DNA of 64,000 nucleotides from Candidatus Magasanikiibacteriota bacterium (GTDB taxonomy: Bacteria > Patescibacteriota > Patescibacteriia > Magasanikbacterales > UBA922). Shown piece by piece: positions 2,004 to 46,342 of the stretch. The notes beneath the pieces were generated by a model. That model was not told the DNA's origin and searched no databases. It saw only the letters and a program-made list of their open reading frames with translations. The DNA lies in contig JBDROX010000036.1 in the NCBI GenBank assembly GCA_043809645.1, positions 1,713 to 65,712 of the forward strand, in the 5' to 3' direction. Positions within the stretch are counted from its first letter, which is position 1. Each line of letters opens with the position of its first letter. A program made the position numbers and the translations under genes.

Positions 2004-3611
2004 TTATTTCACGCGAATAATGATATATCCATCATTTTCAAAAACTATTTCAAAGTCATTGGGCCTATGGGAGACAAAGTTTCTGAAATTTTCTGAAAGT
2101 GGACTAGTCTTCGAACTGAAGATATAGTCTGATTCAAAAATATTGTGCACAGCATGCTGTACAGCGTTAATCTGGTGCATTGTGCTTAGATCCATGCAAG
2201 CCTCTCTCTGGGGGCAATATAGGCCTCTGAGGATCAGATTATACCAGGTCCAGTAGAGATGCTGGTCATAGTTGTACATGAATACAGGATCAAATCCAGC
2301 AATATATTGAATGTCACTATTTTCAAAGAATAGGGGAGCAAAGGAACTCCAGTTCGTAAGGAAAACAGTCTTTCCTTTTGATACAATACTACTCAGCTCA
2401 TCAGTGGCCTCATAAAACTCCTTTTTCTTTTCTAGATCACCAACGGCAATGTTGTTATAAAATATGACAAGGTTTTTACTACAGAAAAAAGTAAGAATCG
2501 CCAAAATGAGAAGAGTAGGTATATTTTTTCTTCTCTTGCTTTGATTATTGATAACCTTAAATACATCATATTTTGATGCCTGCACAAACACATATACAGA
2601 AAGAAGAAATGTCATTGGTACCCAATATTCCACCATACGAGGAACTAACACTGTGGCTACAAGTGATAAAGAGCAGAACGTGAGTAAAACAAATGAATCC
2701 CCATCCAATTTTTTTTCTGAATGAAGGTAAAGAGCCAGAGAGGAGAAAAAAAGGAAAAGAGTAACTGTAATAATATTTCCAAGCATGATAGTAGAGAAGC
2801 TCATGGTTGCCAGTTCAGATCCACTGGGGAGAGTTATGCCGGCAAGTTTCAAATAGAAGATCTCGAATGTATGGACGAGGATAACGTGAGTATATCCAAT
2901 AGTTTGTGGATGCAGAATGAGTCCAAGGAGAACGCCACCAAATACTGATATGATGGGTCTCAGATCAACTATCTTCTTTTCATAATATATCGATATGCTA
3001 AAGAGAAGTGAAAGAAGGAGAAATGGCGCAATGAAGTTGTACATGAGGATGTAGAGCACCGAGAAGAAGAATGCCCAAACATACCTTTTCTTTGAAAGCA
3101 AGTAGAATCCTGCAATCATGAGAGCTATAGATATGACAAATGGTCTACCCAGAAGAATACGGAATGAGAAGATTGTGGATGATAGAAAAAAAAGAAGAGT
3201 TAAAAGAAAATTATGCTCCTTTAGTTTTTTCCACGCTATGAGATAGAAGAAAAGGAAAATAAGAGTAGCCTGAAGTGCACTTACAAGCTTGAGTGAGTTA
3301 ACTGGCCCTAGAAATCTATTTACTTGTCCTGTGATGAAGTGGTGGAGTACATACGGGTCTGCTGGTAGAGTGCTAAAGAAGTGGAATGCAATCCATGGTT
3401 TCACTACAGAAAACTTTCCACTCTCATACACTATTTGGCTATGTTTCGCATGATAGTATGCGTCCGAGCCATAGAGGCCCTCGTGAGCAAACTGTGCATA
3501 CCCAAAGATAGTGCAAAAAAAGAAAAACACCAATAGTGCTCGTACCAATGGTGATTTAAAGACTTTTTTAATTTTGACAGGCAGAAATATAGTGAAGAAT
3601 TGCCTAATCAT
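2004..3611 (-). CDS. large polytopic integral membrane protein (about 12 TM helices plus C-terminal soluble domain); GT-C-like or VirB6-like candidate
   Basis: 535 aa, many hydrophobic helices, first loop motif SDAYYHAK, about 150-aa C-terminal soluble domain; overlaps the next gene by 4 nt (operon). Confidence 0.4.
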   Translation of the reverse strand: MIRQFFTIFLPVKIKKVFKSPLVRALLVFFFFCTIFGYAQFAHEGLYGSDAYYHAKHSQIVYESGKFSVVKPWIAFHFFSTLPADPYVLHHFITGQVNRFLGPVNSLKLVSALQATLIFLFFYLIAWKKLKEHNFLLTLLFFLSSTIFSFRILLGRPFVISIALMIAGFYLLSKKRYVWAFFFSVLYILMYNFIAPFLLLSLLFSISIYYEKKIVDLRPIISVFGGVLLGLILHPQTIGYTHVILVHTFEIFYLKLAGITLPSGSELATMSFSTIMLGNIITVTLFLFFSSLALYLHSEKKLDGDSFVLLTFCSLSLVATVLVPRMVEYWVPMTFLLSVYVFVQASKYDVFKVINNQSKRRKNIPTLLILAILTFFCSKNLVIFYNNIAVGDLEKKKEFYEATDELSSIVSKGKTVFLTNWSSFAPLFFENSDIQYIAGFDPVFMYNYDQHLYWTWYNLILRGLYCPQREACMDLSTMHQINAVQHAVHNIFESDYIFSSKTSPLSENFRNFVSHRPNDFEIVFENDGYIIIRVK

Positions 3612-4331: not shown

Positions 4332-6899
4332 CTAAAGACTTGCTTCTATAGAGTCAGTATCTGCTTGTCCTTCTGACTCACCAAGCTTTGTCCTTTCCAT
4401 AATCTCTGACTCTACGATCATTTGGTCACGCCCATACTTGAGTCTGGAGAGCTGCTTAATGGCATTTCCAAGTTCTTTATTTCCTTGCATTGGTGGAAAT
4501 GTCTGCATGAGGAATGGTTTTGAAGCAGTATTATCAATTAGGAGTTTTGTATACCAGGAGAACATTGGGGCATTGAGTAGGTCGTACGCACCAAATGTTG
4601 GTGCAAACTCCTTTGCAAGAACCTCTGAATCATCTGGTCCAATGCGGGCAGAGAACATAGTACCAGCATTACCGAGGACTGCGTCACGGATACCAGACCT
4701 TCCTTTGTCGTCTGTCAGCTGACCCATGTATTGATGGGCAATGATAAGGTCTAGCTTATATTTTCGAGCCTCAGATAGGATAGTTGAGATAGAGTCAGTA
4801 ACAAAGTTCTGGAACTCATCTATATAGAGATAAAAATCTTTTCTATCTTCTTCTTCCTGATCAGCCCTAGCAAGGGCCGCCATCTGAAGCTTGGAAACAA
4901 TAATGAGTCCGAGTAGTTTGGCATTTACCTCACCTGTTTTTCCTTTTGCAAGATTCACGAGAAGTATCTTTTGATTATCCATAATATCACGGAAATCAAA
5001 ACCTGACTTTTGCTGACCCATGATGTTTCTCATCATTTCATTCTCTACGAAACGACCAACCTTGGAAATAAGGTAGCCAAGCATTTCTGATTTATGAAAG
5101 TCACTTGTTTTTGCCATTTCCTTCTCCCAGAATGCTCGGACGACTGGGTCTTTTAATTTTTTCAAATAGACTTTTACATAGTCATCATCTGTGAACATGC
5201 GTGGAATATCAATGATAGTCCCTGGGTTATCCAGGTCGGCCATGAGTGTGAGCATCACATTACGCATATTGTGCTCGAACATTGGTCCGATCATTTCCGG
5301 TGGAAAGAGTTTGTAGAAAATTGAGATCATCTCCTGAACCGCGAAGTCTTTCTGATCCTCACTCTTCGCCTCTAACATATTGAGACCAATAGGACGTTCT
5401 GTATCAGACGGATCGAAGATCACAACATCGTCAGCACGTTCTTTTGGTATATGACTGAGGATATACTCAACGAGGTCTCCGTGTGGGTCGATAACACAAA
5501 CTCCTTTTCCTTCATGAATATCCTGGATAGCCATTCTAGATACGAAGACAGACTTACCACCACCAGACTTACCAATAATGTACATGTGTCGCCTCCTGTC
5601 TCCTTCCTTCATGAAAACATTTGTTTTTGAACCCCTATAATCAACATATCCGAGGAGGAGGCCTTCTTTTGGAAGGTTTGATGGGGGTGGGGCTTTTCTT
5701 CCTGTGAGCCATTTGACGTTTGGTGCTTCTGTAGAATGGAGCGGAAGGTGCCAGAATGAGGCCATTTCATCTGTTGTCAGTAGGATCTTTCTCTTCTCAT
5801 CAAAACTCCTGTAGATGAAGTGGCGGATAAGACCAGTTTGCTTTTTTGGAACAATGGCTTGAAAACTATTTCCATATCGATACAGATTGTACTGCCCGAA
5901 GGAGCCTATGAGGTCATCTAGATGGAGCCTGGCAGCCTCTTCCTGATCAGCAACACTCAGAAGTCTAATAGTCACATCCATGCCACCACGACTCAGCTTT
6001 TCCTCAAATCCCTTTAGCATTTCTTCTTCCATACCCGAGAGCTGGTATGGTGTGCCATCTTTTCTTTTCTCAGGATTTTGGAGCGTTTCAGTGAATTCTT
6101 TTGATCCTTTTTGGAAAGCTCTCCCAAATGCACTTCTCTTTGCAATTTGCTCGAACTTCTCACCTTTTTTTATATCACGAACCATCGTTACACCCTGCTT
6201 TCTCCAAGTCTTCACTGCACTTCTGATCACGAACTGTATTGCCATGGAGCTGTTATTGTCCTGATATTTTGATAAGACATTTAGAATGGAAGCTAATGGG
6301 TCTGATTCCATTATTTTGTATGATTTGAAAGGGAAGACACCTTTTTGCTGGGTAGTAAGGTAGGCGCCAACAATTTTACTTTTTTCAGAAAAAATATTGT
6401 AATCCTGAATCTGGTCGATCTGTGCGTGTGGATGCTGTGCATTGATCTGCTGTTCCATGAACGATCGCATCTTATTCGGGATGTCTATGTAGAAATAGAT
6501 CAGACCACCTGTAGCAACTATTTCAAAAGACATGTGGTCATTTCTACCACCAAACCATCTTGAAAATCCTTTTTGTGCTCGGAGGGCTGCTACTGCAGAG
6601 AACAGCGTCTCTGTCATTCCTATTTCCTCCTTTATCTGCTCGAGTCTGTCATCTGTGCTTGCCTGTCCACCGGCTCCTTCTGACTTTCTCTCCTTTGGAA
6701 CGAGGATTTGGAGTACAGACCTGCCAAAGGCTTTGTTTGCTTTTCCACGGTTCTGAATGAGTGTTCGAACCAGGAGGAGTATCGCAAAAACAGTAAAGAC
6801 AATGATGAGAACAATGACAATCCAAAAAAGAAGATTCCCAATTCCAGAGGAATTTAAAAGGTTTGTTTGATTGAAACCAACAAAGAATTGGAAAAACAT
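4332..6899 (-). CDS. VirB4/TrbE/TraC-family type IV secretion-type P-loop ATPase with N-terminal TM helix (VirB3-VirB4-fusion-like layout)
   Basis: 855 aa; N-terminal TM; Walker A YIIGKSGGGKS near residue 445; IDPHGD; Walker B LYIDEFQNF; ARKYKLDLIIAHQYMGQL (the RK...Q motif of T4SS ATPases, AAA_10 / CagE_TrbE_VirB type). Confidence 0.55.
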   Translation of the reverse strand: MFFQFFVGFNQTNLLNSSGIGNLLFWIVIVLIIVFTVFAILLLVRTLIQNRGKANKAFGRSVLQILVPKERKSEGAGGQASTDDRLEQIKEEIGMTETLFSAVAALRAQKGFSRWFGGRNDHMSFEIVATGGLIYFYIDIPNKMRSFMEQQINAQHPHAQIDQIQDYNIFSEKSKIVGAYLTTQQKGVFPFKSYKIMESDPLASILNVLSKYQDNNSSMAIQFVIRSAVKTWRKQGVTMVRDIKKGEKFEQIAKRSAFGRAFQKGSKEFTETLQNPEKRKDGTPYQLSGMEEEMLKGFEEKLSRGGMDVTIRLLSVADQEEAARLHLDDLIGSFGQYNLYRYGNSFQAIVPKKQTGLIRHFIYRSFDEKRKILLTTDEMASFWHLPLHSTEAPNVKWLTGRKAPPPSNLPKEGLLLGYVDYRGSKTNVFMKEGDRRRHMYIIGKSGGGKSVFVSRMAIQDIHEGKGVCVIDPHGDLVEYILSHIPKERADDVVIFDPSDTERPIGLNMLEAKSEDQKDFAVQEMISIFYKLFPPEMIGPMFEHNMRNVMLTLMADLDNPGTIIDIPRMFTDDDYVKVYLKKLKDPVVRAFWEKEMAKTSDFHKSEMLGYLISKVGRFVENEMMRNIMGQQKSGFDFRDIMDNQKILLVNLAKGKTGEVNAKLLGLIIVSKLQMAALARADQEEEDRKDFYLYIDEFQNFVTDSISTILSEARKYKLDLIIAHQYMGQLTDDKGRSGIRDAVLGNAGTMFSARIGPDDSEVLAKEFAPTFGAYDLLNAPMFSWYTKLLIDNTASKPFLMQTFPPMQGNKELGNAIKQLSRLKYGRDQMIVESEIMERTKLGESEGQADTDSIEASL

Positions 6900-8557: not shown

Positions 8558-9037
8558 TTATTGGATAATAATATTAGTGCTACCTGGAAGTCGCTCTCTA
8601 ATAATCTTGAGATCCTGCTCTGAATATGGATTGCCAGAGAGGCGAAGCCATTTCAATTTTTTTAGATTTCCGATCTCATGTGGAAGTCCTGTAATTCCGT
8701 TGTTTGAGAGGTCGAGGAGTTCGAGATCTTCTAGCTGTCCAACTTCTGCCGGGACGCCTGTCATAATATTGTCACTCAGATCAAGAACTTTTAGGTTTTT
8801 AAGCTTATTAATTTCTGCTGGGATGGCACCGCCAATTTCATTTCCAGAAAGGTCAAGCTCTTCAAGCTTTTTATTCTTGAAAACATCGGCAGGGATTTCT
8901 TTTAGTTCCTGATTGCTGAGATCAAGTTTGAGGCTATTTGCAATTTCGACATCTCCGTCTGTTTCAGCAGTATCATTCAGACTACAGCCAGTGAATAGGA
9001 CGGTGATAGCGATGAGAGGGAGGAGGTATTTTTTCAT
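8558..9037 (-). CDS. leucine-rich-repeat lipoprotein
   Basis: Start chosen at MKKYLLPLIAITVLFTGCS (lipobox LFTGC); at least five LxxLxLSxNxIxGxxP LRR units. Confidence 0.65.
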   Translation of the reverse strand: MKKYLLPLIAITVLFTGCSLNDTAETDGDVEIANSLKLDLSNQELKEIPADVFKNKKLEELDLSGNEIGGAIPAEINKLKNLKVLDLSDNIMTGVPAEVGQLEDLELLDLSNNGITGLPHEIGNLKKLKWLRLSGNPYSEQDLKIIRERLPGSTNIIIQ

Positions 9038-9047
9038 ATATTTTTTA

Positions 9048-9251
9048 TTACGATTTTGGTACGATGCGAGCGAAATACATGCCAAGGAGTACAAGTACCG
9101 TACCAATATACACAACATAATTTGACACTGTATATGATTTTGTTATTATCGAGCCAAGACGGTAAAGAAGGAGAGCAAGACCAATAATAAAAAGGGCAAT
9201 ACCAACTTTTTTAAATTTTACGGGTACGAAACCTGTCGGCTCATTTGGCAT
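9048..9251 (-). CDS. small two-TM membrane protein (VirB2/VirB3-like size class; function unknown)
   Basis: 67 aa, two hydrophobic helices. Confidence 0.35.
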   Translation of the reverse strand: MPNEPTGFVPVKFKKVGIALFIIGLALLLYRLGSIITKSYTVSNYVVYIGTVLVLLGMYFARIVPKS

Positions 9252-27609: not shown

Positions 27610-29022
27610 CTAGAAAAATCTATCCCATATTGTAACAACGGAGAAGATTCCGAAGAAGATAAAGGAAAATATGATAATGATTCTACGCCAGATCTTTGGT
27701 TGAATTTCTTTTGGAAGCTCGCGGTAGTTTAGCCAATTGACAAGGCCAATGTGAACAAACATACACACAGCATTGATAACAGCACTAAGTATAAGGAGCG
27801 AAAGAGGTTCTGTGAAGCCGAGTGAGAAGACTAAAATACCAAATGCAATCTGTGCCCAGAGGAATGCAAAATAAATCTTCGAAAGATTTATCCTTCTCTC
27901 TTCATGTGATCGAATCGCAGCATAGTTCTCTGACATGATCCTACTTGTAGAATCCATAACTGAGAACTGTGTTGAGAAGAGCATAATTCCCATCAAAATA
28001 AGGAAGATTGATCCAAGTGCTGGAAATGTTTTACTTGCAATGATTCTTCCTTCATTGATAACAAAGTTTATACCTTCTGCATTCCCAGCCAATCCAAACG
28101 TTGTGGAGTAGGAGAGTAAGAGGAGAAAAGACATGGTGATGAGGCCTGTCAGAAAAAACACAAAAAAGTGTTCCTTGTTCACACTCTTCCACCATGATTC
28201 GAATCTACTCAAGTTTTCTTTTGTAGGATGAAACTCAAAACCATTGAGATCAATCTTCTGTTTTGTTCCACCAAAAAGGCCTTTTATTTTTTCTGTGAAA
28301 GCACCCATGCCGTATCCTTTTTCTCGAATATAACTTGATTGTGTAAGATTTAGATTTCCTCCAGCACCACTAAAGGCAAAGGCAGCCAGAAACACTGCTA
28401 TTGGAATTCCAGCTGGGAGGAACCAATATTCGCCTCCTTTTCCAATCAGACCTTGTCCGAGTGCTGCCCAGTCAGCTCCCTTTGCAAAGTATATAGTAAG
28501 AATAAAAACTGAAGGTATGCCGATCAATATAATCAACTTAGCAAATCGCTCGACAGTATTATAGATATATTTTCCAAAACTGAGGATGAGGCCGATCAAA
28601 AGTAAAAACACAATAGCGATGACAGTGCCTGTACCACCAAAGACTGAAGCAAAAAGTGCTCCAGACGAAGCAATAATACCTGGCCACCCAAACCCAATCA
28701 TTGTAGAGAAGATGAGCCAGAATGGGACCCATTTCCACCTCCTTGCAAGACCAATGAAAACACTCTCACCTCTGGCAAGTGAATATCGCTCTATCTCCAT
28801 ATTGATAAAGAACTGGAAAAAAATGCCAACAAGTGCTCCCCATGCAATGCCAAGTCCCCAGTTTGAGGAGAGATACGGCCAGAGAATAACTTCGCCAGAC
28901 CCGAGGCCAAGACCGAGCAGAATGAAGCTTGGGCCGAGGAGCTTGCGAAACGGAGGGGGCTTTGGAATTGATTTTGATTGTTTTTTGAGCATAAAAGCGG
29001 GATTATCTTGACTTTCTAACAA
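27610..29022 (-). CDS. NRAMP/MntH-like divalent metal transporter (distant)
   Basis: 470 aa, about 11 TM; GPSFILLGLGLGSGEVILWPYL...MEIERYSLARGESV parallels the NRAMP GPGFL...DPGN...LLW...LQELSARLG signature. Confidence 0.45.
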   Translation of the reverse strand: MLESQDNPAFMLKKQSKSIPKPPPFRKLLGPSFILLGLGLGSGEVILWPYLSSNWGLGIAWGALVGIFFQFFINMEIERYSLARGESVFIGLARRWKWVPFWLIFSTMIGFGWPGIIASSGALFASVFGGTGTVIAIVFLLLIGLILSFGKYIYNTVERFAKLIILIGIPSVFILTIYFAKGADWAALGQGLIGKGGEYWFLPAGIPIAVFLAAFAFSGAGGNLNLTQSSYIREKGYGMGAFTEKIKGLFGGTKQKIDLNGFEFHPTKENLSRFESWWKSVNKEHFFVFFLTGLITMSFLLLLSYSTTFGLAGNAEGINFVINEGRIIASKTFPALGSIFLILMGIMLFSTQFSVMDSTSRIMSENYAAIRSHEERRINLSKIYFAFLWAQIAFGILVFSLGFTEPLSLLILSAVINAVCMFVHIGLVNWLNYRELPKEIQPKIWRRIIIIFSFIFFGIFSVVTIWDRFF

Positions 29023-41190: not shown

Positions 41191-42609
41191 ATGACACAAG
41201 ACAAAAACATAGGTAATTTTGATTACCTTGGGATTGGAGAAAAACTTCTGACAATTCTAAAAAACAAGGGTTTTGAAACCCCAACCCCGATTCAACATCA
41301 GGTTATTCCTGCTGCCCTAGAAGGAAAAGATGTGGTAGGCATTGCACAAACTGGGACTGGAAAGACCCTGGCTTTCGGCATTCCGATCCTTGAGAAAATA
41401 CTAAAAGGGAGCGGGCAGGCACTCATTATGGTGCCAACACGTGAGCTTGCACTCCAAGTAGAGGCATCTCTGAAGCAAATCGGAAGTACACTCGGACTCC
41501 GAACAGCTGTCATAATCGGGGGCGTAGCACAGGGAAGACAGGTGCAAAATATTCGAAATAATCCACATGTCATCATTGCAACACCTGGACGTCTAGACGA
41601 CCTCATGAAGCAGGGTCAGTATAAACTAAACAAAGTTGAGATTATTACACTCGACGAGGCAGACAGAATGCTCGATGTTGGATTCCTTCCACAAATCAAG
41701 CATATTTTACAAACTGCACCGCAGAAGAGACAAACCATGCTCTTCTCTGCTACTATGCCGAAGTCTATCTCTTCTCTTGCGAGCCAATTCATGAAGATTC
41801 CTCTCAGAATTGAAATTGCACCCCAAGGAACTTCTGCAGAGCACGTTGAACAGGAAGTATTTGTCATTAGAAAAAATGACAAGATGCGCCTCCTTGACTC
41901 AGTGCTCGAAGAGTATAAGAGTGACAAGACACTCATCTTCTCTCGAACCAAGCACGGTGCAAAGCGTATTGCACGCGAGATCAGAAACATGGGCCACACA
42001 TGTACAGAAATTCATGGAAATCGATCACAGCCACAGAGAGAGAAGGCACTCGAGGGCTTCTCTGGTAGGCGATTCCGTATCATGGTTGCGACAGACATTG
42101 CAGCACGTGGTATTGATGTCAGAGATATTGGTCTGGTACTGAATTTTGACCTTCCAGACAATTCAGAGGACTATGTTCACAGAATTGGAAGGACCGGACG
42201 AGCAGGGCGATCTGGAAAAGCAATCTCATTCATCGACCCATCACAGAAGGCTGATGTGAGTAGAATAGAGAGACTCATCAGAAAATCTCTAAAAGTCCTT
42301 TCTCTTCCACAGCTACCACCACCAAGACCCAAGGCTCCAAAAGAGAATAAACCATTCTCTGGATGGCAACCAAGGCGACAGGGTGGAGGATATGGTGGGC
42401 CAAGAAAACGTCCTGCTGGACACAGCAAGCAAAAACCGTCGTCTAACTACAACAGACGAAATTCTTCGTCTAACGAAACCAAGTCAGAATTTACTCCAAA
42501 AAGAGAAGATAAAAACTGGGATGGCGAAAAACAGAGGGGTAGAGCTCCTTCGAAGAATAAACAAAAACCACAGAGAAGTCGAAATAGCGGGAAGAGGAGA
42601 ACAAGATAA
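41191..42609 (+). CDS. DEAD-box ATP-dependent RNA helicase with Arg/Gly/Lys-rich C-terminal tail
   Basis: Q motif, AQTGTGKT, PTRELA, DEAD in LDEADRML, SAT, HRIGRTGRAGRSG. Confidence 0.9.
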   Translation: MTQDKNIGNFDYLGIGEKLLTILKNKGFETPTPIQHQVIPAALEGKDVVGIAQTGTGKTLAFGIPILEKILKGSGQALIMVPTRELALQVEASLKQIGSTLGLRTAVIIGGVAQGRQVQNIRNNPHVIIATPGRLDDLMKQGQYKLNKVEIITLDEADRMLDVGFLPQIKHILQTAPQKRQTMLFSATMPKSISSLASQFMKIPLRIEIAPQGTSAEHVEQEVFVIRKNDKMRLLDSVLEEYKSDKTLIFSRTKHGAKRIAREIRNMGHTCTEIHGNRSQPQREKALEGFSGRRFRIMVATDIAARGIDVRDIGLVLNFDLPDNSEDYVHRIGRTGRAGRSGKAISFIDPSQKADVSRIERLIRKSLKVLSLPQLPPPRPKAPKENKPFSGWQPRRQGGGYGGPRKRPAGHSKQKPSSNYNRRNSSSNETKSEFTPKREDKNWDGEKQRGRAPSKNKQKPQRSRNSGKRRTR

Positions 42610-43177: not shown

Positions 43178-43678
43178 CTATTTCACTCCATCTATTTCAC
43201 ACCTTCCAACCTTCTTTACCTCTACAACATCACCCTTTTTCAGACCAATCAAAGCTGACCCAAGTGGAGACTGATGTGATATCACGCCTTTCTCAGGATC
43301 TGCCTCAGAAGCTCCCAATATGGTGTAAACTCTCTCACCTTTGGGAATTTTTATTGTTACAGTGCTCCCGAGCTGTACAGTATCACCACCAGTAGGCTCT
43401 ATAACCTCTGCATGATTAATGAGATAATCCACTTTTAGAATTCCGCTGAGTATTCCTCGGAGTTTTCTCTTTGCCTGCTGATATTCTACATTTTCAGAGA
43501 AGTCACCAAGCTCAGCGAGCCTTGCTACTTCACGCGCTGCACCCGGCTTTTTCTTCTTGAGACGAATCAAATCACGCTCCATTTGCTCAAATTTATCCAT
43601 ACTCATGGCATGATCTGTAGGAATTTGGCTGTATTTACCTGGTTTTCTCTTCGGAAGTTGCATAATAGTGCTTGACAA
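43178..43678 (-). CDS. greA: transcription elongation factor GreA
   Basis: N-terminal coiled-coil with ...GDFSENVEYQQAK and C-terminal FKBP-like domain; start probably at an internal Met (MQLP... or MSMDKF). Confidence 0.85.
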   Translation of the reverse strand: MSSTIMQLPKRKPGKYSQIPTDHAMSMDKFEQMERDLIRLKKKKPGAAREVARLAELGDFSENVEYQQAKRKLRGILSGILKVDYLINHAEVIEPTGGDTVQLGSTVTIKIPKGERVYTILGASEADPEKGVISHQSPLGSALIGLKKGDVVEVKKVGRCEIDGVK

Positions 43679-43807
43679 ATAAGTCTAACTAGTATATAGT
43701 TTCATATTCATTGTTACAAGGGATATTTGGTAGGCTCCATCCTATTGATATTAAACCGAAAAAAAGGTAGACTTGAACAAAGGAGTAATCACTAATTTTA
43801 CTAAAAT

Positions 43808-44488
43808 ATGGGACATTTTGATAGAAACAACAGAGGTGCTGGTGGATTCAACAATAGAAATTCTGGTGGAGGAAGCTTCAATAGAGGTGGGGATAGACCT
43901 CAGATGCATGATGCCACTTGCAAGAAGTGTGGAAATTACTGCCAGGTACCATTTCGACCAACAGGAAGTAAACCAGTATTTTGTAGCGACTGTTTTGGTA
44001 AACAAAATGACGGCGGAAGAGGAAGCTTTGGTGGTAGAGGTGACAGAAAATTTGGAAATAAAAAATCTTTTGGCGGTTCTCAAAATATGCACCCAGCAGT
44101 CTGTGATACATGTGGAAATGACTGTGAGGTACCATTTCGACCAACAGGAGACAAGCCAATCTATTGCAGCAACTGTTTTGGAAAAGATTCCAAAAGTGGT
44201 GGCAGTAGTAAAGGTGGCTCATGCAATTGTTCTCCAGAAATTAAAAAACTTGAGGGCAAGATTGATAGCATCCTCAAAACACTTGGTATTCCAGAACCAA
44301 AGAAGTATGTAGCTCCAATAAAGCCAGAAAAGAAAAAAGAAGAATCGAAGAAAGCTGTACCTGCAAAGACAGAGAAGAAAGAGGTAGATACAGATCCTAA
44401 GCCAAAAAAAGTAAAGAAAACAAAAGTAGCACCAAAAAAAGTAAAGAAAGCTGTAAAAAAGAAAGCTGCAACTAAGAAGAAGAAATAG
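43808..44488 (+). CDS. Gly/Arg-rich protein with two tandem CxxC...C zinc-ribbon modules and a histone H1-like Lys/Ala/Pro-rich C-terminal tail
   Basis: CKKCGNYCQVPFRPTGSKPVFCSDCF and CDTCGNDCEVPFRPTGDKPIYCSNCF repeats; tail KKVKKTKVAPKKVKKAVKKKAATKKKK; the overlapping track ORFs (43773-44312, 43751-44092, 43878-44222) are shadows. Confidence 0.55.
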   Translation: MGHFDRNNRGAGGFNNRNSGGGSFNRGGDRPQMHDATCKKCGNYCQVPFRPTGSKPVFCSDCFGKQNDGGRGSFGGRGDRKFGNKKSFGGSQNMHPAVCDTCGNDCEVPFRPTGDKPIYCSNCFGKDSKSGGSSKGGSCNCSPEIKKLEGKIDSILKTLGIPEPKKYVAPIKPEKKKEESKKAVPAKTEKKEVDTDPKPKKVKKTKVAPKKVKKAVKKKAATKKKK

Positions 44489-44554
44489 ACAGAAAAAACA
44501 ACATGAAAAAAACTGTCTCAATGGCAGTTTTTTTCAGTAAGAATTTAAAAGATT

Positions 44555-46342
44555 ATGGAAATTAGAAATATCGCAATTATCGCACACGTCGATCATGGCA
44601 AGACACGCCTAACTGATGCGCTCATGCGCCAGACTGGGATGGTCACAGACGAGAGTGCGAGTATGGACTCGAACGATCTTGAAAAAGAACGCGGTATTAC
44701 TATTTATTCAAAAAATACATCGGTCTTCTATGGGAATACAAAAATCAATATTGTGGACACACCTGGCCATGCTGACTTTGGGTCAGAGGTCGAGCGAGTG
44801 CTCCGCTCTATTGATTCAGTGCTCCTCGTTGTTGACGCACAGGAAGGTCCAATGCCACAGACCAAGTTTGTTCTGAAGAAATCTCTGGAGCTTGGACTCA
44901 AACCTATTGTTGTCCTCAATAAGATCGATAAGCCGGCTGCTAGGCCAGATTGGGCACATGATAAGGTTCTGGAGCTCTTCATGGATCTGGGTGCCACAGA
45001 TGAGCAGCTTGACTTCCACACAGTATATGCAAACGCAAAAGAGGGAATAGCTATGAAGCATCTTGGTGATGAATCAAAGGACCTCGTCCCACTGCTCGAC
45101 ACAATTCTCAAGAACGTCCCGCCTGCAGCAGGTGATGCCAAAAAGCCATTCTCCTTTCAATCATTCAACCTTGCATATGACAGTTATCTGGGTCGTATGG
45201 GTATTGGCAGAGTACACGAAGGAACACTGAAGGTGGGGGAGAAAGTGTTCGTAAAAAAACATTCTGGAGAGATCCTTACTGGCACCGTTGGTAAACTATT
45301 TACATTCGAAGGAATCAGCAGGAAAGAAGTTACAGAAGTTTCCGCAGGGGACATCACCATGATGGCTGGACTTCCGGACATATATATCGGAGACACTATT
45401 TGTGTAGAAAAGGATCAAGAACTTCTTCCGGAAATTAAAATTGATGAACCTACAATTTCTTTAAATTTCCTATTCAACAATTCACCATTTGCAGGAAAGG
45501 AAGGAAAATTTGTAACTAGCAGGCAAATTATAGAGAGATTAAAAAAAGAACTCGAAGTAAATGTTGGTTTGAAGATAGATTTCTCAGAAGTAGACCATAG
45601 CAAAGTCTTTGGAAGAGGAGAGCTCCATATTGCTGTGCTCCTCGAGAATATGAGAAGAGAAGGATTTGAGCTTCAAGTATCACAACCACAGGTTATTATC
45701 AAGGATGTTGATGGAGTAAAGTCAGAACCTTTTGAGGAAGTAACAGTGGATGTACCGAAAAAATTTGAAGGTATTGTGATTGAGAAGCTAGCAAAGAGAA
45801 AAGGGGAAATGCTGAGCATGGCTCCAGAGCAGAGCCAGACTCGCATGATTTACAAAATGCCAACACGTGGACTCCTAGGATACAAAAGTGAATTTGTGGT
45901 AGACACACATGGCGAAGGCATTCTCTGCAGCGAAGTTATTGGATTCCTCCCGCATGTAGGTGAAATCTCAAAACGAGATGTTGGATCCATGATTTCTGGT
46001 GAAACAGGGAAGGTCCTTTCATATGCCCTTGATAATCTCCAAAACAGAGGCGTTCTCTATGTCGCCCCAAATGCAGAAGTCTATGAAGGTCAAGTCATTG
46101 GAAATGCTTCCAAAGGACAAGATATGACAGTCAATCCTATCAAAGGAAAGCATCTGACAAACATGAGGTCATCTGGTGCTGATGCTGCTATTCAACTCAT
46201 ACCACCACTAGAAGTAACACTCGAGCGCGGTATGGAAATCATGGCAGAGGATGAATATCTAGAAATTACCCCAAAAAATATCCGTCTTCGAAAACAAGTA
46301 TTAAAAGAAGTGAGTCGAGTGAAAGCGGGCAGAAAAAAGTAA
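44555..46342 (+). CDS. typA: translational GTPase TypA/BipA
   Basis: AHVDHGKT, DTPGHADF, NKID GTPase motifs; EF-G-like domains. Confidence 0.9.
   Translation: MEIRNIAIIAHVDHGKTRLTDALMRQTGMVTDESASMDSNDLEKERGITIYSKNTSVFYGNTKINIVDTPGHADFGSEVERVLRSIDSVLLVVDAQEGPMPQTKFVLKKSLELGLKPIVVLNKIDKPAARPDWAHDKVLELFMDLGATDEQLDFHTVYANAKEGIAMKHLGDESKDLVPLLDTILKNVPPAAGDAKKPFSFQSFNLAYDSYLGRMGIGRVHEGTLKVGEKVFVKKHSGEILTGTVGKLFTFEGISRKEVTEVSAGDITMMAGLPDIYIGDTICVEKDQELLPEIKIDEPTISLNFLFNNSPFAGKEGKFVTSRQIIERLKKELEVNVGLKIDFSEVDHSKVFGRGELHIAVLLENMRREGFELQVSQPQVIIKDVDGVKSEPFEEVTVDVPKKFEGIVIEKLAKRKGEMLSMAPEQSQTRMIYKMPTRGLLGYKSEFVVDTHGEGILCSEVIGFLPHVGEISKRDVGSMISGETGKVLSYALDNLQNRGVLYVAPNAEVYEGQVIGNASKGQDMTVNPIKGKHLTNMRSSGADAAIQLIPPLEVTLERGMEIMAEDEYLEITPKNIRLRKQVLKEVSRVKAGRKK

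Follow-up and report, generated by a model that had tools for sequence, protein, structure and literature searches.

What does a small bacterial protein bind when it joins two cysteine modules to glycine- and arginine-rich segments and ends in a histone-like lysine tail? The question is raised by a gene on a stretch of 64,000 nucleotides of contig JBDROX010000036.1 from a Candidatus Magasanikiibacteriota bacterium (assembly GCA_043809645.1); this whole stretch is called the window below. An earlier note, made by a model from the letters alone, described the product as a protein with two zinc-ribbon modules, each behind GG/RG-rich sequence, and with a lysine tail like that of histone H1, and proposed that it binds the nucleoid or RNA. 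The description of the open reading frame (ORF) is accurate. Nucleic-acid binding is also the most reasonable expectation from the sequence, but the indirect evidence leans towards RNA and translation and not towards the nucleoid. The reading that we prefer, and hold with about even confidence on the features described below, is that of a zinc-stabilised, multivalent binding or chaperone protein associated with RNA or with ribosomes.

The family, which the earlier note could not name, was found by a hidden Markov model (HMM) search. The window protein matches Pfam PF23477 (zf_Tbcl_2, "probable treble clef zinc finger") in two stretches (E = 9e-32), with 108.9 bits where the curated cut-off is 27, and NCBIfam TIGR04272 (CxxC-x17-CxxC domain), again in two stretches, with 106.2 bits where it is 36. 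A protein from a Candidatus Magasanikbacteria metagenome-assembled genome (MAG), deposited at NCBI as MFH1286849.1 and named "CxxC-x17-CxxC domain-containing protein", is 100% identical to it. Because the curated models match and the identical deposited protein carries that name, the family is already catalogued, and by sequence the window protein is a member of it; the family is functionally uncharacterised. In the literature searched, one relevant paper, on Methanosarcina mazei (PMC12704099, below), names the domain. A search with the zf_Tbcl names and accessions found no paper, and the supplements of the Southlakia transposon-sequencing paper contain no matching annotation, so that an ortholog is not identifiable there. 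A match of the module to a well-characterised enzyme family would have told against the earlier note; no enzyme family was matched by the window protein.

The gene is real and not a chance ORF, because the Pfam match covers two stretches at the E-value given above, 2233 homologs are found in a large protein database (E <= 1e-3), and the N-terminus is conserved. Strong protein conservation beginning at the first residues fixes both the start codon and the frame, which is the one that had been proposed. Long ORFs in other frames overlap the gene at 43773-44312 (+), 43751-44092 (-), 43878-44222 (-) and 44219-44521 (-). They are by-products of the low-complexity coding sequence and not a second gene; a comparable alternative-frame ORF is present in six related loci, as a side effect of the conserved nucleotide sequence.

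The two modules, MHDATCKKCGNYCQVPFRPTGSKPVFCSDCFG and MHPAVCDTCGNDCEVPFRPTGDKPIYCSNCFG, are the only CxxC-x17-CxxC motifs in a regular-expression scan of the reading frames of the window (at 43919 and 44102). The set consists of Cys38, Cys41, Cys59 and Cys62 in module 1 and of Cys99, Cys102, Cys120 and Cys123 in module 2, and none of these eight residues varies in 74 homologs. The invariant cysteines of each module number five (CxxCGxxC ... CxxC) and not four, a point that the earlier note had missed; the additional ones are Cys45 and Cys106. The modules had been called near-identical, which is overstated at 22 identical residues of 32 (69%, counted by hand), but from their sequences they are clearly homologous, and at the level of DNA their identity is 83% over 75 nt, their starts being 183 nt apart. 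The low-complexity GG/RG-rich stretch reported ahead of each module is borne out by composition, with 28% G and 16% R in residues 1-32 and 31% G, 10% R and 14% K in residues 65-93. In the helix that follows the modules (KLEGKIDSIL in the window version), K151 is invariant and D153 and L159 are nearly so in the alignment with homologs. The K/A/P/V tail, estimated at about 70 residues in the earlier note, has 67, of which 42% are K, 12% P, 10% A and 10% V; its net charge is +20 and it ends in ...KKVKKTKVAPKKVKKAVKKKAATKKKK, terminating in KKKK. An exact 18-nt direct repeat, CCAAAAAAAGTAAAGAAA, is found within the tail at 44402-44419 and 44432-44449 and suggests that the tail has expanded through slippage or duplication.

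The full-length protein was modelled with AlphaFold2 (AF2) from a 74-sequence alignment and without metal. The predicted local distance difference test (pLDDT) score is about 90 in both modules and 80-90 in the helix (residues 142-158), and falls below 50-60 everywhere else, which is predicted to be disordered. In each module of this model the first CxxC lies between two short beta-strands and the second at the start of a short helix; in module 1 the strands are residues 34-37 and 44-47 and the helix, residues 60-66, opens at C59/C62, and module 2 is built likewise. A zinc ribbon has its two cysteine pairs on the beta-hairpin knuckles of a three-stranded sheet, an arrangement absent from the AF2 model, so the zinc-ribbon label of the earlier note gives way to a predicted treble-clef-like fold. 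A model of the module alone reproduces the hairpin, and DSSP assigns no helix in it.

Zinc binding has been measured in archaeal relatives. Two small proteins of Methanosarcina mazei with this domain, A00184 and A01980, bind zinc by inductively coupled plasma mass spectrometry and belong to the small proteins detected with the greatest confidence in that study, whose authors merely speculate on a role in transcription (PMC12704099). By analogy with these relatives, each module of the window protein would bind one Zn2+.

Searches for relatives of the module outside the family gave little. Searches of the PDB, with phmmer for the protein and with hmmsearch for a profile of 109 module sequences, found no meaningful solved relative, the best hits being the lasso regions of thymidine kinases (E > 1). 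No structural neighbour of the module was significant, the weak ones from Foldseek being PHD, CW and FYVE fingers, and the sub-threshold Pfam similarities of the 109 modules were to zinc_ribbon_6 (RCHY1-type), ZZ and Zn_ribbon_8 fingers. A likeness to the FCS/TRASH/L24e/YacG fingers, suggested by the "FCS" in PVFCSDCF, was rejected; these are not among the 25 Pfam families most often weakly matched by the 109 modules.

These weak similarities bear on one alternative, according to which the modules are protein-protein or zinc-buffering units, the charged segments are solubility or chaperone-like tails, and nucleic acids play no part; the protein might be a chaperone for basic ribosomal proteins or, with 12 cysteines in 226 residues, a zinc reservoir. 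The best of the weak Pfam matches, ZZ and zinc_ribbon_6, are mostly protein-contact fingers, the Foldseek neighbours agree with such a role, and the acidic tails of the DPANN orthologs described below resemble histone or ribosomal-protein chaperones. However, all those finger similarities are far below significance, a basic composition rich in Arg-Gly-Gly (RGG) and lysine (isoelectric point 9.9) is as expected of a polyanion binder, and no recurrent linkage to zinc-homeostasis genes was seen, Fur occurring once. We regard this alternative as improbable.

The architecture is widely conserved. A profile of the module recovers 6825 clusters at 50% identity among 1.84 billion representatives, and a scan of one genome per species with full-length alignment confirmed at least 588 loci, 80 of which were used for the comparisons of neighbours, tails and taxa. 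The best 120 of the 2233 homologs are 173-344 aa long, and those with an organism name are from Patescibacteria. The top homologs share the order MGNFxR, RGG-rich segment, two modules (three in seven of the best 120), Gly-rich linker, LNxKLDxIL helix and a K/A/P/V/E tail ending in KKKK. The earlier note had proposed that conservation in related genomes be checked, and the architecture is indeed kept in the 120 best homologs and belongs to thousands of proteins of Patescibacteria, the candidate phyla radiation (CPR). The CPR-type taxa among the 80 loci are Magasanik-, Uhr-, Falkow-, Buchanan-, Peri-, Peregrini-, Sacchari-, Davies-, Dojka-, Beckwith-, Lipton-, Nomura-, Kaiser- and Moraniibacteria and Paceibacterota. 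The other taxa are DPANN, Micrarchaeota, Nitrosopumilus and other Thaumarchaeota, Methanosarcinales and a few Chloroflexi and Firmicutes. The family thus covers most CPR classes together with DPANN, Thaumarchaeota and Methanosarcinales. Seven of the loci (L013, L024, L033, L042, L044, L045, L084) come from MAGs labelled "uncultured Gammaproteobacteria" (binchicken series, similar assemblies), and their gene copies are typically CPR, with MGNF starts and K tails; the labels of these seven MAGs are probably wrong.

Within the family a subfamily, "MGNFxR - RGG - module - LNxKLDxIL", can be delimited by the N-terminal motif, the RGG segment, the fifth cysteine (CxxCGxxC) and the C-terminal helix. 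The definition is ours and not a curated one, and was set against 73 homologs and the 80 loci; the window protein has all four features. The fifth cysteine is invariant in 247 of 247 modules of the 120 best homologs and present in most DPANN and Thaumarchaeota loci examined; the members examined from Thermoplasmatota, Heimdallarchaeaceae and Chloroflexi lack it. The charged residues of the helix are invariant, and the MGNFxR motif spans both domains of life. In the DPANN orthologs the MGNFR start is followed by the RGG segment, a single module and the helix, after which comes an Asp/Glu-rich tail or the end of the protein. In five DPANN loci (L041, L051, L058, L059 and L079; match at about 6001 in each), strongly acidic tails stand behind an LNxKLDKIL helix in place of lysine tails. 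Some CPR and Woesearchaeota members likewise end right after the helix, without a tail. Because the DPANN orthologs have acidic tails or none, the sequences mark the histone-like lysine tail as a lineage-specific add-on and not as the part that defines the family.

Proteins of Thermoplasmatota, Heimdallarchaeaceae and Thaumarchaeota have two to five modules joined by Arg/Gly-rich or Arg/Asp/Ser-rich linkers. Since Arg-rich linkers thus occur also in unrelated archaeal subfamilies, the recurrent unit, as read from the sequences, is a zinc module with an Arg-rich disordered segment. Two proteins of 298 and 397 aa from Nitrososphaerota/Nitrosopumilus (L036, L039) have two or three modules split by Arg/Asp/Ser-rich repeats and an additional C-terminal region containing cysteines (…GGKTCSNCGF…VFCLNCN…) that has no Pfam match. 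Fusions to DEAD-box, cold-shock (CSD) or RNA recognition motif (RRM) domains were found neither among the 150 best representatives nor in the 80 loci. The CSD genes that adjoin family members encode plain proteins of 63-67 aa, save an archaeal one of 124 aa.

These comparisons bear on the nucleoid, the first of the two ligands named in the earlier note. The protein might compact DNA, its tail acting like the C-terminal domain of linker histone H1 or like chlamydial Hc1 and neutralising the charge of the DNA, while the modules and the helix add contacts and bridging. The likeness of the tail to H1 and Hc1 holds for its composition, and such an H1-like K/A/P/V tail is found in most CPR members. 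Few dedicated nucleoid proteins may also be needed by small CPR genomes, ybaB-recR-dnaB is close to the gene in one relative and a SWIB gene in another, and Streptomyces DdbA offers a precedent in an H1-like segment fused to a C4 zinc-finger domain (PMC3643593). However, the tail is the least conserved part of the protein, as the acidic and tailless orthologs illustrate, and no linker-histone, Hc1 or HU domain is matched in Pfam at E <= 1. RGG-type segments are, moreover, more characteristic of RNA binders. No evident nucleoid or replication gene family occurs among the 25 most recurrent neighbour families. A nucleoid role, the main rival of the preferred reading, is in our opinion unlikely.

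The genomic neighbourhoods, as indirect evidence, lean towards RNA and translation. All ORFs within 6 kb on either side of the gene were clustered for the 80 loci, without preselected families. ABC ATPases are near the gene in 14 loci; ten of them are two-domain proteins of 455-519 aa, and a representative was confirmed as ABC-F. CSD proteins are found in nine loci, two of them archaeal, DEAD-box helicases in seven, greA in five, def (peptide deformylase) in four and typA in three. Histidine kinases (seven loci) and response regulators (five loci) recur as well. The tightest "RNA chaperone" cluster is in locus L067 (5574-7935), in which the genes for a cold-shock protein, the zinc-finger protein and a DEAD-box helicase are consecutive and co-directional. 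As a control, 50 other window genes were used as queries, and 40 of them, including those for CysRS, LigA, GatA, a Mur ligase and ClpB, match none of the 80 loci; more than one match was obtained only for the paralog-rich FtsE-type ABC ATPase, P-type ATPase, response regulators and SpoU methylase. By our estimate, a gene present once or twice per genome of about 1 Mb would give about one chance match in the 773 kb of flanks. Because the counts exceed this, the excess of ABC-F, CSD, DEAD-box and greA genes looks real. According to a survey, ribosome-biogenesis factors in CPR genomes are about half as numerous as usual; it includes bipA, helicases of the rhlE type and the ABC-F gene yheS in these factors (PMC12641178).

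In the window itself the order is DEAD-box helicase, a 161-aa ORF, greA on the opposite strand, the zinc-finger gene, typA/BipA and an RRM protein. The setting between greA and typA behind an intergenic region of its own, as described earlier, is correct for the window but not general. The full arrangement recurs only among close relatives (L010), another locus (L053) keeps the divergent greA alone, and a conserved greA-gene-typA operon was therefore rejected.

The link to greA bears on a further alternative, a transcription factor acting on RNA polymerase. The zinc finger of DksA/TraR has the spacing CxxC-x17-CxxC and binds the secondary channel of RNA polymerase as GreA does. That spacing is identical in the modules, and greA lies within 400 bp of the gene in the window and in each of the five loci, which represent at least three CPR classes and vary in orientation. 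One M. mazei member is also annotated in UniProt as an RNA polymerase subunit (PMC12704099). However, greA is missing from 75 of the 80 neighbourhoods, and the family is common in archaea, which lack GreA. Homology to DksA/TraR was rejected by hhalign, which aligned a single column of the module with E. coli DksA at a probability of 0.75%. Of the 25 Pfam families that the 109 modules most often match weakly, none is zf-dskA_traR, and a single 17-residue helix is predicted in place of the long coiled coil of DksA. A role on RNA polymerase is thus given little probability.

The preferred reading of an RNA- or ribosome-associated binding or chaperone protein would work as follows. The folded parts would be the two Cys4 modules of about 32 residues, predicted to be treble-clef-like and each held in shape by one Zn2+, and the short amphipathic helix, with all else disordered. 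From their composition, the RGG-like segments and the lysine tail might make many weak electrostatic contacts with nucleic-acid backbones, and the conserved helix might serve self-association or the docking of a partner. Together these features would make a multivalent RNA binder of low specificity. The neighbourhoods suggest that it could act as an RNA chaperone or in association with ribosomes, beside cold-shock proteins, DEAD-box helicases, ABC-F and BipA in Patescibacteria. That RNA and not DNA is the main ligand we infer from the neighbourhoods, from the RGG character and from the orthologs that do without the basic tail.

Several observations weigh against this reading. A lysine tail with a charge of +20 would be expected to bind DNA no less well than RNA. 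Of the neighbours, greA adjoins the gene most tightly, and it points to transcription and not to RNA remodelling. Five relatives inspected singly have wholly different immediate neighbours, and two archaeal contexts are likewise unrelated. Genes for a small GIY-YIG protein (seven of the 80 loci) and an HI0933-like flavoprotein (six) recur near the gene and do not fit an RNA theme. The 80 loci are also not phylogenetically independent, and the neighbour counts ignore kinship.

A broader proposal can be put forward tentatively, and we think it more doubtful than the preferred reading: the MGNFxR-RGG-treble-clef-helix protein may be a lineage-wide RNA chaperone or a ribosome-biogenesis or translation factor of ultra-small prokaryotes, bacteria of the CPR and archaea of the DPANN. 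It would work with ABC-F proteins, DEAD-box helicases, cold-shock proteins and BipA, and might partly offset the halved classical set of ribosome-biogenesis factors in CPR. Tails rich in K (CPR) or in D/E (DPANN) could tune one core to different partners, and the sharing of the core between CPR and DPANN might reflect transfer between domains or convergent retention in episymbionts.

The features of the gene and its neighbours are collected in Table 1. Because it has a promoter-like site of its own and a strong terminator hairpin, which separates it from typA, the zinc-finger gene is most likely monocistronic. The promoter-like site lies about 108 nt 5' of the ATG, inside the 129-bp spacer common with the divergent greA; the region has three such sites, where shuffled sequence would give 2.5. 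The terminator hairpin folds better than every one of 200 shuffles and ends about 17 nt ahead of the typA start codon (44555). The AAGGAG is the sole Shine-Dalgarno-like site of the gene and, at 22 nt ahead of the ATG (43780-43807, +), unusually distant. A weak AGTAA...TTACT hairpin lies between the two and could in effect bring them closer together; the leader shows no significant fold (z = -0.9). An Rfam scan of the window found tRNAs only and no family near the zinc-finger gene, and no match for the protein was obtained in the phage families of PHROGs.

Table 1. Positions of the zinc-finger gene, its signals, the segments of its product and the neighbouring genes in the window.
Feature	Position	Strand	Remarks
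DEAD-box helicase	41191-42609	+	own RG/K-rich tail
Unassigned ORF, 161 aa	42685-43170	+	between DEAD-box helicase and greA
greA	43178-43678	-	divergent, 5' neighbour
Promoter-like site TTGACA-17 nt-TATAGT	43672-43700	+	11 of 12 consensus positions; consensus match only
Shine-Dalgarno-like AAGGAG	43780-43785	+	read from sequence
CDS, CxxC-x17-CxxC (zf_Tbcl_2) domain protein	43808-44488	+	226 aa and stop; pI 9.86; 24.4 kDa
N-terminal motif MGHFDR	43808-43825	+	family consensus MGNFxR; common to bacteria (CPR) and archaea (DPANN)
Gly/Arg-rich (RGG-like) disordered segment 1, aa 7-32	43826-43903	+	composition; pLDDT <50
Zinc module 1 (putative), aa 33-64	43904-43999	+	family HMMs, alignment, AF2 pLDDT about 90
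Gly/Arg/Lys-rich disordered linker, aa 65-93	44000-44086	+	AF2, composition
Zinc module 2 (putative), aa 94-125	44087-44182	+	family HMMs, alignment, AF2
Gly/Ser-rich linker, aa 126-141	44183-44230	+	contains non-conserved SCNC
Conserved amphipathic helix SPEIKKLEGKIDSILKTL	44231-44284	+	family consensus LNxKLDxIL; helix predicted at 142-158
Lys/Ala/Pro/Val/Glu-rich disordered tail, aa 160-226	44285-44485	+	composition, AF2
Intrinsic-terminator hairpin	44501-44538	+	A-tract, 14-bp stem, U-tract; -17.7 kcal/mol, z = -5.6
typA/BipA	44555-46342	+	3' neighbour
Single-RRM protein, 85 aa	46545-46802	+	directly after typA

About 120 residues at the C-terminus of the DEAD-box helicase form an extension in which R, G, K, S and P abound (…RRQGGGYGGPRKR…GKRRTR) and the composition of which resembles that of the disordered segments of the zinc-finger protein. 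Neither Pfam nor NCBIfam matches the unassigned 161-aa ORF, and the 80 related loci contain no homolog of it. Stand-alone RRM proteins are uncommon in bacteria; an RRM neighbour is found in one of the 80 loci. Elsewhere in the window, the ORF at 4332-6899 (-) encodes 855 aa with domains like those of type IV secretion coupling proteins/TrwB, and a leucine-rich-repeat protein is encoded near it at 8558-9118 (-). Two ORFs, of 535 aa at 2004-3611 (-) and of 470 aa at 27610-29022 (-), are without a Pfam match at E <= 1e-5.

A large part of the diversity of bacteria falls to the Patescibacteria, and no role has been assigned to most of the small proteins conserved in them. The protein is widespread and probably abundant in microbial dark matter, and the architecture of the CPR/DPANN subfamily and its neighbourhood associations appear to be undescribed in the literature searched. 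If the protein is a factor associated with RNA or ribosomes, it would be a new component of the reduced gene-expression machinery of these organisms, and a bacterial case of the "zinc finger plus RGG" layout that is otherwise familiar from the RNA-binding proteins of eukaryotes. Should it be just a generic basic binder of DNA or RNA, its interest would be local. The outcome is a testable hypothesis and a defined subfamily, and not a new kind of system.

Among known proteins, the closest are the members of the CxxC-x17-CxxC family itself. M. mazei A00184 and A01980 have the same cysteine spacing and the VPF(R/K)P core of the window modules, and are small proteins built around the domain (PMC12704099). 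The window protein, unlike them, has two modules set in RGG segments, the MGNFxR motif, the helix, the lysine tail and the fifth cysteine in each module. A small sister domain, also of the Cys4 kind, is zf_Tbcl (Pfam PF13451, "probable treble clef domain"), which does not occur in the window protein and is likewise functionally uncharacterised. Four loci from Chloroflexi and Firmicutes (L078, L086, L087, L089) encode direct fusions of zf_Tbcl (PF13451) with zf_Tbcl_2 (PF23477) of about 90-110 aa, without an RGG segment or a tail.

The alternation of small zinc modules with Gly/Arg-rich disorder recalls AtGRP2, a plant RNA-binding protein with a CSD and CCHC zinc knuckles interspersed with Gly-rich regions (PMC11602973). 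This is an architectural analogy only, with no sequence relation or detectable relation of fold. The window protein itself has no CSD or RRM, but CSD and DEAD-box genes repeatedly adjoin the genes of its family. The eukaryotic FET proteins are built of RGG, a RanBP2-type zinc finger and RGG, and so have the same alternation of zinc module and RGG as the window protein; this comparison, too, concerns the architecture only.

The DksA/TraR finger agrees with the modules in the spacing of its cysteines, but the residues between the cysteine pairs differ. The tail has the K/A/P/V-rich basic disorder of the H1 C-terminal domain, of Hc1 and of the lysine-rich extensions of actinobacterial HU and TopA, but the window protein is without a winged-helix or Hc1 domain, and in orthologs the tail is acidic or missing. 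Streptomyces DdbA joins an H1-like basic part to a DksA-like C4 finger, a combination like that of the window protein (PMC3643593).

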